Assembly: GCA_965262725.1 (NCBI GenBank)
Contig: OZ253555.1
Coordinates: 3,264,001 to 3,328,000, forward strand
Source: Dehalococcoidia bacterium
Lineage (GTDB): Bacteria > Chloroflexota > Dehalococcoidia > UBA2979
Length of the DNA: 64,000 bases
Direction of reading: 5' to 3'
The notes beneath the pieces were generated by a model. That model was not told the DNA's origin and did no database searches. It saw nothing but the letters and a program-made list of their open reading frames with translations. Both the position numbers and the translations under genes were made by a program. This document shows positions 38,795 to 43,849 of the stretch, one piece after another; position 1 is the first letter of the stretch; every line of letters starts with the position of its first letter.

Positions 38795-40120
38795 ATGTTA
38801 GCAACGAGCAGCCCCGACCGGATACACATCGCCTTCGACGACGACCGCCTCGTGGACCACGCGGGCCTGCTGCTCCCGGCCACGCTCGCTGGCCGGCTCG
38901 GCCTCCGTGAACTGGCAGACGCCCACCTCGACCTCGGTGACGCAGCGGGGCGGGCGAACGTCGGCGACAAGCTGATGACTCTCATCGCCTCGGCGCTCGC
39001 GGGCGGCGACTGCATCGATGACGCCGATGCCATGCGCTCAGGCGGCGCCGGGCGCGTGCTCGGCTGCACGGTGAAGGCGCCGTCCACCCTCGGGACGTTC
39101 CTGCGCAGCTTCCGCTGGGGCCACGTCCGCCAGCTCGACCGCGTCAGCCGCGAGTTGCTGGCCCGCAGTTGGGCGGCCGGGGCGGGACCCGGCGCGGCAC
39201 CGTTCACGATCGACCTCGACTCGACGCTCTGCGAGACCTACGGACTGGCGAAAGAGGGCGCCCGGCACCACGGCTACACGGGCGTGCGCGGCTATCACCC
39301 GCTGCTCGCGGTGGCGGCCGGGACGGGTGAGGTGCTGATGGCCCGGCTGCGCGGGGGCCGTGCCAACACCGCTCGGGGGGCCGCCCACTTCCTGCGTGAG
39401 ACGGTGGGCCGGGTGCGCGACGCCGGGGCGAGCGGGCAGCTCACGGTGCGCGCCGACAGCGGCTTCTACAACCACGCTGTCGTCGCCGTCTGTCGCAAGC
39501 AGGATGTCCGCTTCTCCATCACCATTCGGCAGCAGCCGAACGTACGCCGGCTGATCGAGGCGATACCGGAAGAGGACTGGACGCCGATCCCGTACTGGCA
39601 GGACGACGGCGCCGCTGTCGCCGAGACGACCTACACGCCGTTCCAGCACACGAGGGACGCCACCGCGGTGCGGCTCATCGTGCGGCGCGTCAAGCCGACG
39701 CCCGGCTCACAGCTCGCGCTCTTCGTGAACTACAGTTACCACGCCTTCATCACCGATCGCGCGGGGGAGATGATGGAGCTGGAGGCCGACCATCGCCGTC
39801 ACGCCGAGATCGAGAACGCGATCCGCGACCTCAAGTACGGCGTCGGGTTGAACCATCTCCCCTCGGGCCGCTTCGCCGCGAACGCGGCGTGGCTCGCGGT
39901 GCAGGTGATCGCGCACAACCTCGCCCGCTGGACGGCACGCCTCGGGCTCGGCGAGGGGATCGTGACGACCAGGACGCTCAGGCGGCGCTACTTCTCTCTC
40001 GCCGGACGGCTCACCCACTCTGCCCGGCGGTGGACCCTGCACCTCCCGAAGCGCTGGCCCTGGGCCGGGCAGCTGGCAGCCGCGCTCGCGCGACTACGGG
40101 CGATACCGCTCCCGACCTGA
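38795..40120 (+). CDS. IS1380-family DDE transposase (near-identical to copy 1)
   Basis: 441 aa; an I/V difference (LDRIS versus LDRVS) is seen relative to copy 1. Confidence 0.93.
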   Translation: MLATSSPDRIHIAFDDDRLVDHAGLLLPATLAGRLGLRELADAHLDLGDAAGRANVGDKLMTLIASALAGGDCIDDADAMRSGGAGRVLGCTVKAPSTLGTFLRSFRWGHVRQLDRVSRELLARSWAAGAGPGAAPFTIDLDSTLCETYGLAKEGARHHGYTGVRGYHPLLAVAAGTGEVLMARLRGGRANTARGAAHFLRETVGRVRDAGASGQLTVRADSGFYNHAVVAVCRKQDVRFSITIRQQPNVRRLIEAIPEEDWTPIPYWQDDGAAVAETTYTPFQHTRDATAVRLIVRRVKPTPGSQLALFVNYSYHAFITDRAGEMMELEADHRRHAEIENAIRDLKYGVGLNHLPSGRFAANAAWLAVQVIAHNLARWTARLGLGEGIVTTRTLRRRYFSLAGRLTHSARRWTLHLPKRWPWAGQLAAALARLRAIPLPT

Positions 40121-40404
40121 CGCCCGCTCACAGCGCCGAACCGGAGCCGAAGCTCGCGCCAGCATGCCCGCCCACGCCTCGCGCACCCTCGCGCCCGCAC
40201 CCTCAGCGCCCCCGAGCGGTGCTGAGCGACGGCTCCTGGCTCCGGCCCGCCCCCGGCGCCGCCCGGCGAACGCCGACACACCCGTCGAACTCTCCGGCAG
40301 CCCGGCACCCCGCCTCGTCAAGCTTCGTTCGGTTCGCGGTAGGGATGCCGGTTGCCCGGCACCCCCCGCACAGATCCGGACGTGCCCTCTCGGGCATCCG
40401 GCTC

Positions 40405-41733
40405 CTACCTCAAGTGCGTGACGGCAAATCGCTCCGCAGGCCACGGGTGAAGGATGGAGATTCGGGGCCAGTGTCCCTGGCACAGGGCAAGGATGCGCTC
40501 CCACGTGAAACGGTCGCGCTGCGACCGCCGTCGGAGAACGCGCAGCCAGAGCCGCTTCACGAAACGGACAAACCGCGTGAGCGCCGGCGAGCTGGTCGGC
40601 ACCGCGTAGTAGCCAAGCCACCCACGCAGTACCCGCCCCAGCCACTGCCCCGTCGTCACGGGGTTGTCGTGCATGCGCCGCCACAACTCGGCCTTGATGA
40701 CCTTCAGCGTCCGGCGCATCCGCTTCGCAACGGGCTTGCGCCCCAGCCCGAATCTCCCGTCGCGTCGGGTCCGGCAGTAGTGCGTCATGCCGAGAAAGTC
40801 GAACGTTTCCGGTCGGCCCTCCCCGCGCTTCCGCCTGTTCGCCAGCGCGAACCTGCCGAACTCAAGTAGACGGGTCTTCTCCGGGTGCAGCTCCAGCCCG
40901 TAGGCCGCGAACCGCTCCCGGAGTGCCTCCATGAACCGCACCGCATCGCTGCGGTGCTGGAACCCCAGGACGAAGTCATCGGCATACCGCACGATGTACG
41001 CCTCGCCCCGGACCTCCCGCGGTCGCCACTCGCGCGCAAACCAGTCGTCGAGCACGTTGTGCAGGTACACGTTCGCAAGCAGCGGCGATATCGGCGCCCC
41101 CTGCGGCATCCCCCGCACGAAATCGACTTCCGGCTCCGCGTCCATGACGCCGACGCTCAGCCACTTTCGTATCAGGCGCAACACCCGCTGGTCCCCGATG
41201 CGCATCTCCAGAAACGACATCAGCCGCCCCCGGTCGATGCTGCCGAAGAACTCCCGGATGTCCACCTCGACAATCCAGCTGACCTTGCGCCGTTCGACCG
41301 CGTAGGCCAGTGCGTCCAGCGCGTCATGCGCCGAACGCCCCGGCCTGAAGCCATGCGAGAAGCCGTAGTAGCCCGACTCGTAAATCGGGTTCAAAAGATT
41401 GTCCACCACCGCCCGCTGAACGATCTTGTCCTCCAGCGAGACGATACCGAGCGGCCGTATTCCCCCGTCCGGCTTGGGTATCTCTACCCGCCTGACGGGC
41501 TTCGCCCGGTACGCTCCACGGTGTACGCGGCCATGCAGGTCGAGCAATCGCTCGTCCAGCCCGTCCCCGTATTCTCGCCACCTCACCCCGTCCACGCCCG
41601 GAGCCGCATCCCGCTTCAACGCGAGATACGCCTCCCGCAGCGCCTCCGGCGTGATGTGGTGCAAGAGCGCGGTGAGTTTCTCTCCCGGCTTCCGTTCCAC
41701 GAACTGCCGTATCCTCTCCGCTCCGGGTGACAC
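40405..41733 (-). CDS. ltrA: group II intron reverse transcriptase/maturase, no endonuclease domain
   Basis: APGVDG, IPKPDGG.RPLGI, GFRPGRSAHDA, PQGA.ISPLLAN.YLH, RYADD and FDFLG motifs. Confidence 0.95.
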   Translation of the reverse strand: MSPGAERIRQFVERKPGEKLTALLHHITPEALREAYLALKRDAAPGVDGVRWREYGDGLDERLLDLHGRVHRGAYRAKPVRRVEIPKPDGGIRPLGIVSLEDKIVQRAVVDNLLNPIYESGYYGFSHGFRPGRSAHDALDALAYAVERRKVSWIVEVDIREFFGSIDRGRLMSFLEMRIGDQRVLRLIRKWLSVGVMDAEPEVDFVRGMPQGAPISPLLANVYLHNVLDDWFAREWRPREVRGEAYIVRYADDFVLGFQHRSDAVRFMEALRERFAAYGLELHPEKTRLLEFGRFALANRRKRGEGRPETFDFLGMTHYCRTRRDGRFGLGRKPVAKRMRRTLKVIKAELWRRMHDNPVTTGQWLGRVLRGWLGYYAVPTSSPALTRFVRFVKRLWLRVLRRRSQRDRFTWERILALCQGHWPRISILHPWPAERFAVTHLR

Positions 41734-41844
41734 CGCACCCCGACTCTGCGTCCGGACCGTGCCGGTGCTTTGAGGATTCCTCTCGGTTGGGGCCCTTTGC
41801 TCCAGCGACTCCGCCGGGGCTCGCGCCCCCTTCTATGAGGGTCG

Positions 41845-42178
41845 TCTGATCCGCAAGGCCGACGTGGCGGCCTTCTGCACCGTTCTACCGATCGCGCCTC
41901 CCGTCCGCAGCCCTGTGGTGGTTGTCGGTGCCGATGCGAGTGGTGCCGCCGTCTTGTCCCCGGGACGTTGTGGTGACCGTGCTTCTATTCGCACTCGTCG
42001 AGGGGCCGCTCCGGGCCCGGTGCATGATGATCAGCCTGTCTCCAGGGTGTGGGCGCTGCCATCTTGTTCCCGTCCTCGTTGGGACCAGGGGGTTCCGCAG
42101 TCGCCCGCGTGTCGGCATCTCTCGTATCCTCCGAAGCCCACCGGCCGCCCGGTCGCCTCGCTCCTCGCGTGCTGTCTG
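41845..42178 (-). ncRNA. candidate bridge/seekRNA region of the IS1111-type element
   Basis: Carries CCCCCT-hairpin-GAACAAG matching the target site and TCATC-hairpin-ATAGAAG matching the circle junction. Exact RNA ends unknown. Confidence 0.7.
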
Positions 42179-43270
42179 CTACGCCGCCTCGGCCGCGCGC
42201 GCGTGGCGCAACGGCTCGTAGACCTCCCCGCTCTTCCAGAGCGCAAGCATCAGCACCGCCAGTCGCCTCGCGACCGCGACGACGGCACGCTTCTTCGCAT
42301 TGCCGGCCCCCGACTCCGCGTAACGCAGCCCCCACCTGCGGAGGTCGCTGTCGGGGCCGAAGGGGCCCAGGATGTAGTGCGCGGCCTGGTTCAGCACCCG
42401 GCGCAGCGCCACGTCCCCTTCCTTCGTGATCCGCAGCTGGGGCTGCCGATCACCGGAATCGCGGCTCCGGGGCACCAGCCCCAGGTAGGGCCCCACCTCC
42501 CTGTTCTTGGGGAAGCGGGCCGGGTCCTCGATGGTGAGGATGAAGGTGAGCGAGGTGATCGGGCCGACGCCCACGATCTGCCGCAGCGCGCCGGTCTCCG
42601 CGTAGCGCTCGCACATCGCGGCGAGCTTCTTGTCGGCCTGGCGGATCTCCCCGGTCAGCTGCTCGATCTGGTGGAGCACCGGCAGCAGCGCCGGGCCCAG
42701 CTCCTCGGGGATGTGCTCTCTGACCGCGCGGTGGAAGGCCGGCGCCGTGCAGCCCGGAAGCGCCGCGCCCCACGCCTTCACCGCGCCCCGGACGTGGTTG
42801 ATGAACATCGTGCGCGCCCGGACCAGCGCCTCGCGGCTGCGGAGCACCTGGAGGTCCGCCTGCGCCATGGCGCTTCGGTGCCGGATGGGGAAGAGGAGCG
42901 CCGGGTCGAATCGGCCGAGCCGTGCGAGGTGCTCGGCATCGGAGCGGTCGGTCTTGCGCTGGCTGCGCGCGATCAGCCTGACCTGCCTCGGGTTGGCGAC
43001 GATCACGTCGTGACCGAGCTCCGCGAACATCCGGCTCAGCCACGGGGAACGCGGCCCCACCTCCATCACCACCCGGGCGCCCTGCAGTGGGGTGAGCGCC
43101 CGCGTGAGCGCCGCGGTCGTGGTGCGGACTCGCTCCTCCCGCACGATCTCCCCGTCGCCACCGAGGACGCAGAGGTGGCTGTAGCGGTCGCTGACGTCGA
43201 TGCCGACAGTCACGAGCTCCGCATCCCCCACCTTCCTGCTCTCTGTGACATCTGATGTACGCTGTGCCAC
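42179..43270 (-). CDS. IS110-family DEDD recombinase/transposase
   Basis: VGIDVS, VVME, KTDRSDA, GVGPIT, YLGLVP...DSG and KRAVVAVARRL motifs. GTG start with AGGAG RBS (alternative start 43231). Confidence 0.93.
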   Translation of the reverse strand: MAQRTSDVTESRKVGDAELVTVGIDVSDRYSHLCVLGGDGEIVREERVRTTTAALTRALTPLQGARVVMEVGPRSPWLSRMFAELGHDVIVANPRQVRLIARSQRKTDRSDAEHLARLGRFDPALLFPIRHRSAMAQADLQVLRSREALVRARTMFINHVRGAVKAWGAALPGCTAPAFHRAVREHIPEELGPALLPVLHQIEQLTGEIRQADKKLAAMCERYAETGALRQIVGVGPITSLTFILTIEDPARFPKNREVGPYLGLVPRSRDSGDRQPQLRITKEGDVALRRVLNQAAHYILGPFGPDSDLRRWGLRYAESGAGNAKKRAVVAVARRLAVLMLALWKSGEVYEPLRHARAAEAA

Positions 43271-43849
43271 GGTCGGTCTCCTACCTCTCTCGGCTCGCCT
43301 GAGCCGTTCTCCTGGGCCACCACGTGAGCCCGTGCTTGGAGGGGAAGTATCCCCTCTGAGGAGGGGACCGACCCTCATGTCATCTTGTTCGCCGCCTTCA
43401 TCGCTCGTACGGCCCCATCAGACTGCTGCGCATCGTTCATCATCGGCTACGGTTTACGTCCCTTCCCGACGCGGTCCCGGCGTACGACTCGTCGGGACAA
43501 CGCGCAGCTCTCCCAAGTCCCGGCGATAGACGTGTGTGCGTGCATGGGGTCTTCGACACCGTGGGGCCCGACCACGACTCGCCAGTAGCGCCGTCGCCGG
43601 TATTGCCTTCGACCAATCCAAGAGCCTCGGCACCCCAAATGGCCCTTTCGATGCTCATTAGCCCCGCCCGCACACCCCGCTGCCGACGCTTCACAAGCCG
43701 CCTCGCGACGACCCGCGCACGGCTCGCGGAATGACATGAGTGGCTAGCTCTTTGCCATAGAGGACTTCCACCTCCTGCCTACTCGCCAGTTAGCCTGGCG
43801 CTCTGGATTCGAGCTTAAGGGCGGGGACGCCCGATGCTAGACTGCGGTC

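Follow-up and report, generated by a model that had tools for sequence, protein, structure and literature searches.

The insertion sequence and its host intron

The window, i.e., the whole stretch of 64,000 nt that was analysed, is G+C-rich and belongs to a Dehalococcoidia bacterium (NCBI GenBank assembly GCA_965262725.1, contig OZ253555.1, positions 3,264,001 to 3,328,000). On its minus strand it carries a group II intron with its own reverse transcriptase/maturase gene, interrupted by an IS1111-type insertion sequence (IS) that consists of a transposase gene and a long downstream region in which a guide RNA is predicted. The parts of the intron and of the IS are listed here with their positions in the window:

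40332..43803, minus strand: host group II intron, from 5' GAGCG at 43803 to 3' ...CGCGAAC at 40332; 1918 nt without the IS
40405..41733, minus strand: intron-encoded reverse transcriptase/maturase ORF of 442 aa (PF00078, 1.6e-36; TIGR04416, 326 bits, cutoff 300)
43386..43416, minus strand: 5' part of intron domain III (nt 388-418), with the left target half GAACA at its end
41789..41831, minus strand: 3' part of intron domain III (nt 419-461), starting with the core AG and the right target half GGGG, then the GCGA tetraloop
41832..43385, minus strand: IS1111-type insertion sequence, 1554 bp
43385-43379, minus strand: left terminal extension AGATGAC, 7 bp, outside the left repeat
43369..43378, minus strand: left subterminal inverted repeat ATGAGGGTCG (IS sense)
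42179..43270, minus strand: transposase gene, with a likely GTG start at 43270
41855..41874, minus strand: conserved hairpin AAGGCCGCCACGUCGGCCUU just inside the right end, kept across the aligned variants except those at loci L032 and L034
41835..41844, minus strand: right subterminal inverted repeat CGACCCTCAT (IS sense)
41834-41832, minus strand: right terminal extension AGA, 3 bp, outside the right repeat

The IS boundaries are ambiguous within the common CTT (41830-41832 and 43384-43386), and the core is CT on the plus strand, i.e., AG in the sense of the transposase. The open frame of the transposase continues upstream of the likely start to an ATG at 43378, within the inverted repeat, and has zero stops in all four full-length copies found in the genome. 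The encoded protein was assigned to PF01548 (DEDD_Tnp_IS110, the RuvC-like, N-terminal domain; 2.7e-19) and PF02371 (Transposase_20, C-terminal; 7.2e-18), and reached 217 bits against the NCBIfam model NF033542 'IS110 family RNA-guided transposase' (cutoff 140). The repeats ATGAGGGTCG / CGACCCTCAT form a perfect 10-bp pair, and the asymmetric extensions of 7 and 3 bp outside of them hold if the common core AG is assigned to the left end, an assignment that is ambiguous by the 3 common nt. Subterminal repeats of the IS1111 group usually measure 11-13 bp in the account of PMC11187229 and 7-17 bp in that of PMC11208160 (the consulted parts of both), which places the repeats of this IS one base below the former range and within the latter. 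The non-coding sequence amounts to 347 bp downstream of the gene (41832-42178) and ~115 bp upstream of it (43271-43385). These repeats, the 7/3-bp extensions and the long downstream non-coding region are IS1111-group features as described in the same parts of the two papers, and together with the Pfam and NCBIfam matches they uphold the original prediction of an IS1111-type element with a predicted guide RNA encoded downstream of the transposase. The two alignment rows (L032 and L034) without the hairpin near the right end diverge from the IS sequence before reaching it. A scan of 41700-43500 for promoters found no promoter-like site, and for terminators a single terminator-like site within the same interval, on the opposite strand within the gene, a yield no higher than that of shuffled sequences.

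Domain I of the host intron was recognised by RF02005 (170 bits at 43768-43547, gathering score 49), and domains V-VI by RF00029 with 39.9 bits at 40406-40332, just under the gathering score of 40 (E = 3e-5). The layout in between was obtained from an alignment of 11 related introns from seven genomes. A D2 helix (nt ~291-384) and the two-base linker GA precede a domain spanning nt 388-461, which is composed of a basal stem (GGGGCC/GGCCCC), a large internal loop and a distal hairpin (GGCGGC-GAACAAG-GGGGC-GCGA-GCCCC-GGCGGA-GUCGCU), with compensatory changes at four of its pairs; it is followed by one A and by the D4 basal stem (nt 463-471 with 1836-1845), which co-varies in two diverged copies. 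Because of its place in the order from D2 to D4 and of the co-variation, we identify nt 388-461 as domain III, an assignment made by these two arguments and not from a curated structural model. The IS divides domain III between the internal-loop strand and the distal stem, and the insertion probably disables the intron.

The target comprises 11 nt, GAACA-AG-GGGG, within the distal hairpin of domain III (nt 414-424 of the 1918-nt intron), and the landing sequence expected for the IS in the window is GAACAAGGGGG. Removal of the IS rejoins the flanks into an empty intron site, and the reconstructed empty target put forward earlier, GCGCCCCCTTGTTCGCC, does occur in the genome, where this 17-mer has 10 uninterrupted sites, all of them within copies of the intron. 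For the 11-mer core, an additional site exists that is unoccupied and not in an intron; with the four occupied sites included, 14 of its 15 genomic copies lie in the intron, and 10 of these 14 intron sites remain empty. With almost every target copy of this genome residing in it, the intron serves as a landing site that is present many times and lies outside host genes. The target had also been described as a conserved domain III motif. Its location in domain III was borne out and its 5' half, GAACAA, is invariant in all 11 aligned introns, but within this intron clade the core G is replaced by A in 7/11, and these seven introns would therefore not be targets.

The genome (3.67 Mb) contains 10 near-identical, full-length intron copies of 1918 nt that share the exact boundaries. 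Other insertions interrupt two further copies (near 1522773-1524988 and 1876116-1877443), another two have 87-88% identity, and there are also several fragments. The homing-site motif TAAGCCCTGATCCA|CGAAG is common to most of them. In the window, the intron is adjoined by the gene of a 441-aa DDE_Tnp_1_4 transposase (38795-40120, plus strand), and the 84 nt flanking its 3' end (40250-40333) recur at 16 other genomic places, which puts the intron itself within or next to another repeated element.

The predicted guide RNA and its pairing

The guide RNA was located by the conservation of the non-coding region among 15 variants, in which a scaffold is interrupted by hypervariable guide segments. 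Its predicted parts in the window are:

about 41975..42119, minus strand: predicted scaffold of a two-loop guide RNA (seekRNA / bridge RNA)
42087..42095, minus strand: predicted target-loop 5' guide GAACCCCCU, 9 nt, of which CCCCCU pairs with AGGGGG of the top strand (intron nt 419-424)
42063..42070, minus strand: predicted target-loop 3' guide GGAACAAG, of which GAACAAG equals intron nt 414-420 and so complements the bottom strand
42026..42032, minus strand: predicted donor-loop 5' segment GAUCAUC, of which UCAUC complements the left IS end (AG)ATGA(C), a partial match of 5 nt
41982..41988, minus strand: predicted donor-loop 3' segment AUAGAAG, the same sequence as in the right IS end CATAGA-AG

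The segments of both predicted loops are in place as they had been claimed from the letters of the minus strand, the first one with CCCCCT at 42092-42087, a GUCC/GGAC hairpin and GAACAAG at 42069-42063, and the second one with TCATC at 42030-42026, a GCACC/GGUGC stem and ATAGAAG at 41988-41982. The target loop complements both strands of GAACA-AG-GGGG, by a short pairing of 6 + 7 nt that overlaps at the core. The donor segments differ in how well they follow the IS ends: the 3' segment changes (A/G) together with the right IS end in each of the 15 rows where a right end is present, whereas the co-variation of the 5' segment, with its match of only 5 nt, fails in L052 and in the group of relatives with ~70% identity. 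The left donor match is thus as partial as had been stated at the outset, and it is imperfect among the relatives as well.

In the consensus fold of the 15 variants, the first loop is closed by the stem GGGCG.CUGC / GCAG.CGCC and holds the GUCC/GGAC hairpin with one target guide on either side. A small CCUG/CAGG hairpin is also present, the GCACC/GGUGC stem is capped by a GGGCC hairpin and has one donor segment on each side, and an outer GCCG/CGGY helix encloses the whole structure. The guides are left single-stranded around the conserved stems. Folding thus agrees with the proposed two-loop layout at the level of the consensus, but the fold of the single sequence is not more stable than those of its shuffles (z = -0.34). 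Compensatory changes were seen in just 2 of the 31 scaffold pairs because the scaffold barely varies, and a Rfam scan of the non-coding region gave no family at E ≤ 10. The guide order, with the top-strand complement CCCCCU located 5' of GAACAAG, is the same in the relatives and in the IS1111 elements treated in the consulted part of PMC11187229, and the location of the donor bases in a multiloop agrees with the description of IS1111 orthologues in that of PMC11208160.

We consider it very probable, judging from sequence comparison, that the element is an IS1111-type IS with a DEDD recombinase and a downstream-encoded guide RNA, the target loop of which is programmed for GAACA-AG-GGGG in domain III of the multicopy intron. 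By analogy with ISEc11 and IS621, the IS would leave its site as a circle with the junction ...CATAGA-AG-ATGAC..., the recombinase would bind the RNA transcribed from the downstream non-coding region, and the excised circle and the RNA-loaded recombinase would then form a synapse with the intron DNA. In this complex, the 5' guide CCCCCU would pair with AGGGGG of the top strand and the 3' guide GAACAAG with CTTGTTC of the bottom strand, overlapping at the core, while the donor loop would pair with the IS ends, and strand exchange at the core would insert the IS in a single orientation.

Copies of the insertion sequence in the genome

With regard to copies and INDEPENDENCE, the genome has four full-length copies of the IS (A to D), each spanning all 1556 query bases and listed at 100% identity, and all four are found at the identical intron position in the identical orientation. 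Compared over 1554 bp, A and B have the same sequence, and D deviates at four positions. The host introns of A, B, and D are ≥ 99.6% alike. Copy C has a different kind of host, namely a diverged, ORF-less, 5'-truncated intron fragment, the flanks of which differ within 9-17 nt of the IS.

Such a distribution could also arise if the IS had been inserted once and the other introns had then acquired it passively, either through retrohoming of an intron::IS composite or because introns underwent gene conversion or recombination with one another, in which case the occupied sites would show no RNA-guided targeting. For copies A, B, and D, the high similarity of the introns speaks for this scenario. 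The nearest variable intron position is 44 nt away from the insertion site, so that gene conversion between these introns, with a short conversion tract, is possible; moreover, one intron with chimeric flanks was encountered in relatives, which suggests that their intron copies recombine. On the other hand, each of these occupied introns is 1 nt away from a different empty copy and 3-8 nt away from the other occupied ones, and copies A and B are identical even though their host introns differ at seven sites; retrohoming of one intron::IS composite therefore does not fit. The presence of copy C in a diverged fragment would be hard to explain except by a true insertion. Passive spread predicts neither that the guides of the IS in the window match its site nor that those of its relatives match theirs. 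We hence regard passive spread as very improbable, and favour the reading of an RNA-guided insertion into domain III.

No sequencing run recorded as RNA was listed as containing this stretch. A joint that skips the IS (41829 to 43384) was present in the short assembled contigs of three of four sequencing runs (X1, X2, X4, X6), but it shows neither excision nor polymorphism, because the genome's own empty intron copies would yield the same joint. Loose contig ends at 43385 place the left end of the IS beside other sequences, as would be expected from other copies or from relatives. Non-intron sites with other flanks (G000:C1:1681873-1681990, 256474-256517, and 423997-424533) carry solo end fragments from related IS variants, which are likely remnants of earlier, differently programmed IS copies.

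Guide turnover among relatives

A fifth copy in the same genome, copy E, has 93-96% nucleotide identity to the IS in the window and is split by a 2.6-kb element. It sits in an IS3-type orfA (translation ...LREAERLLGEGQTIAEAAKQ..., then rve-domain sequence), at the target GCGGAAG-CT-GAGGG. The target guides are ACGGAAGCU and GCCCUCAG in copy E vs. GAACCCCCU and GGAACAAG in the window copy, the rest of the scaffold is conserved, and each guide pair matches its own flanks on both arms. Between the two copies, 12/17 target-guide positions differ, and the differences comprise 14 of 31 guide positions as compared to 30 of 322 other non-coding columns (Fisher p = 1.7e-6). The donor segments shift together with the IS ends (window/E), AUAGAAG/AUGGAAG along with the right ends CATAGAAG/CATGGAAG for the 3' segment, and UCAUC/CCAUC along with the left ends ATGAC/ATGGC for the 5' segment. 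The region G000:C1:1707874-1712033 (L005, L006) is a set of three nested mobile elements, with the IS3-type element on the outside, copy E within it, and the 2.6-kb transposon innermost. The latter (G000:C1:1708743-1711348) is of the same type as the rve/Mu-type transposon that is the target at locus L031.

Homologous proteins (E ≤ 1e-40) were collected from 10 of the 99 genomes of the same family, this genome included, as well as from 22 genome-collection loci and 27 metagenome loci. The downstream regions of these relatives align as one scaffold with hypervariable guide segments. Pattern searches recovered 43 scaffold copies with 15 guide pairs in eight genomes; in this count the ~70% identity group was covered through five of its genomes, without G079 and G083. 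Among the collected loci, the patterns matched 14 of the 22 from the genome collection and 2 of the 27 from metagenomes, more distant relatives being missed. Further guide pairs were present in L031, L052, and L058, and two in L107, which brings the total to at least 20 guide pairs on one conserved scaffold.

The agreement of guides and flanks was evaluated by a register-free measure, the longest word shared by guide and flank, which suits variants with a guide shifted by 1 nt. The data set contained 26 locus/site rows with 15 distinct guide pairs; loci lacking the scaffold pattern or a recognisable right end were omitted, and so were duplicates with identical guides and flanks. For the right arm, the mean longest shared word was 6.42 with the own flank (n = 26) and 3.21 with the flanks of other variants (n = 622), and for the left arm, scorable in only 15 of the 26 rows, the corresponding values were 5.8 (n = 15) and 3.06 (n = 354). 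Both arms change along with the target in copy E, L052, L021, L023, L024, L031, and L107, and the flanks fail to match their own guides in L019, L029, L062, and L065. In L052, which is located in another genome and has a 95%-identical transposase, the guide GCGCGAACU matches its own flank AG|TTCGCGC over 9 nt.

A second alternative, and a very improbable one, is that of an IS lineage specialised on group II introns, in which the relatives would be inserted in domain III as well and their guides would track intron variants; the original prediction had raised it as a possible intron-specific IS lineage. The IS and the intron do share hosts, as each is present in 10 of the 99 family genomes, nine of which hold both, and the two are often adjacent. 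However, the adjacent cases in the relatives consist of an intron 5' end against an IS left end, and no related locus examined is inserted in D3. The intron-programmed loop was found in four copies, all of them in this genome, that is in 1 of the 99 family genomes, and in none of the metagenome contigs, whereas the other guide pairs, at least 20, target other sequences, be it other mobile elements or ordinary sites. The closest relatives (the sister copy with 93-96% nucleotide identity, a relative with 95% and others with 88-89% amino acid identity) have other guides at other sites. The collection of homologues thus confirmed the expected co-variation of guides with their own flanks, but not the expected insertion of relatives in intron domain III. 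Since the intron loop is confined to one genome and the relatives are otherwise programmed, the lineage is not intron-specific, and the IS in the window is one programmed variant among many.

That the short matches are due to chance and the protein alone picks the site has next to no credibility, for even though each match measures only 5-7 nt and the z-score of the fold is not significant, the own-vs-cross flank comparison, the concentration of the window/E substitutions in the guides and the joint change of both arms with the target in the variants named above argue against it, and the matches exceed chance.

Several of the related loci have peculiarities of their own. On a metagenome contig (L107, 1922-3559), an 87%-identical IS variant interrupts a sibling IS in its guide-RNA gene, at a point that separates the target loop from the donor loop; the guides of the inserted variant, GAACCUGUC and GCCUGGAG, match this site, and therefore one IS is programmed against the seekRNA scaffold of another. 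In L031 (genome G083), the guides of a variant with 77% amino acid identity match a site in the terminal repeat region of a transposon with rve and Mu-transposase C-terminal domains. Two or three tandem right-end units of ~60 nt (the conserved hairpin plus ...CCCTCATAGAAG) were observed in L057, L059, L061, and L041, and in L059 the whole guide scaffold is present twice. In L032, L034, and L044 the sequence leaves the IS exactly inside the donor-loop 3' segment (GGAUAG|...), which suggests another insertion or a rearrangement there.

A related intron has its 5' end directly against the left end of a related IS in three sister genomes, at a fixed position (...CTCATGCCA|GAGCGCC, intron sense) and in opposite orientation (L078 in G079; L087, L094, and L100 in G081; L090 in G078), and the same junction is found in L105 (3940-3976) and L106 (2790-2827). 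It occurs in 5 of the 25 intron rows examined and looks like intron homing into an IS end, i.e., the reverse of the case in the window. A simple 'intron inside IS' arrangement was ruled out at G081 and G079, where the 3' exons are not IS sequence and the loci are therefore rearranged.

One could go further and propose an ongoing contest among mobile elements, in which a pair of RNA-guided selfish elements target each other inside a single family and rapid guide turnover is selected to disable or exploit competitors and not to find neutral sites. This proposal draws on the IS guide being programmed to split the intron domain III here and the related intron 5' end abutting the IS in sister genomes, as well as on other IS variants with guides for an IS3 transposase gene, for the end of a transposon, and for a sibling IS at its guide-RNA gene, but we hold it to be rather unlikely.

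Among known systems, the nearest to the programmed variant described here are the IS1111-family seekRNA elements ISEc11, ISKpn4, ISPst6, and ISPa11 (Siddiquee et al. 2024, PMC11187229). The consulted part of that paper also describes natural reprogramming among close relatives. The target of the IS in the window, a ribozyme domain of a group II intron, differs from those given there; the word 'intron' occurs zero times in that paper. Its predicted RNA scaffold also stands apart in matching no Rfam family at the above threshold. Compared with the transposases of a plasmid collection, the transposase is at most 36% identical to any. With IS621 and the bridge RNA of the IS110 group (Durrant et al. 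2024, PMC11208160; structures 8wt6, 9t56), the IS in the window shares, as far as the consulted part of the paper goes, the two-loop RNA (here a predicted one) with guides for target and donor, the CT core, and the co-variation of guides with targets. In comparison to the IS621 described there, the predicted RNA is encoded downstream of the gene, in the right end of the element, its guides come in the reverse order, and the donor bases flank a stem in a multiloop in place of the simple internal loop of IS621. The protein resembles the solved structures of IS621 and ISCro4 weakly (E = 2e-9 to 3e-10) and in the C-terminal domain only. Other IS1111-family members land in mobile elements or repeated sites (cited in the consulted parts of PMC11187229 and PMC11208160; PMC3001079), with hosts and targets that differ from the present ones, a distinction drawn by their descriptions only. 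Full-text searches of the literature, which covered main texts, did not turn up any IS110/IS1111 element aimed at a group II intron; the supplementary target tables of PMC11187229 and PMC11208160 may still list one. The proposed mechanism is that already known for seekRNA / bridge RNA, and what is new is the type of target, the extent of the natural guide series on a single scaffold, and the host clade.

This family thus offers a clean case of natural guide reprogramming, with at least 20 guide pairs on one scaffold and two differently targeted variants within one genome, and such a guide series could show which scaffold positions tolerate change and what the natural guide length is. The catalytic RNA gene of a group II intron is an added type of target, not found reported, and, with the other variants, IS elements are often seen landing in other mobile elements.
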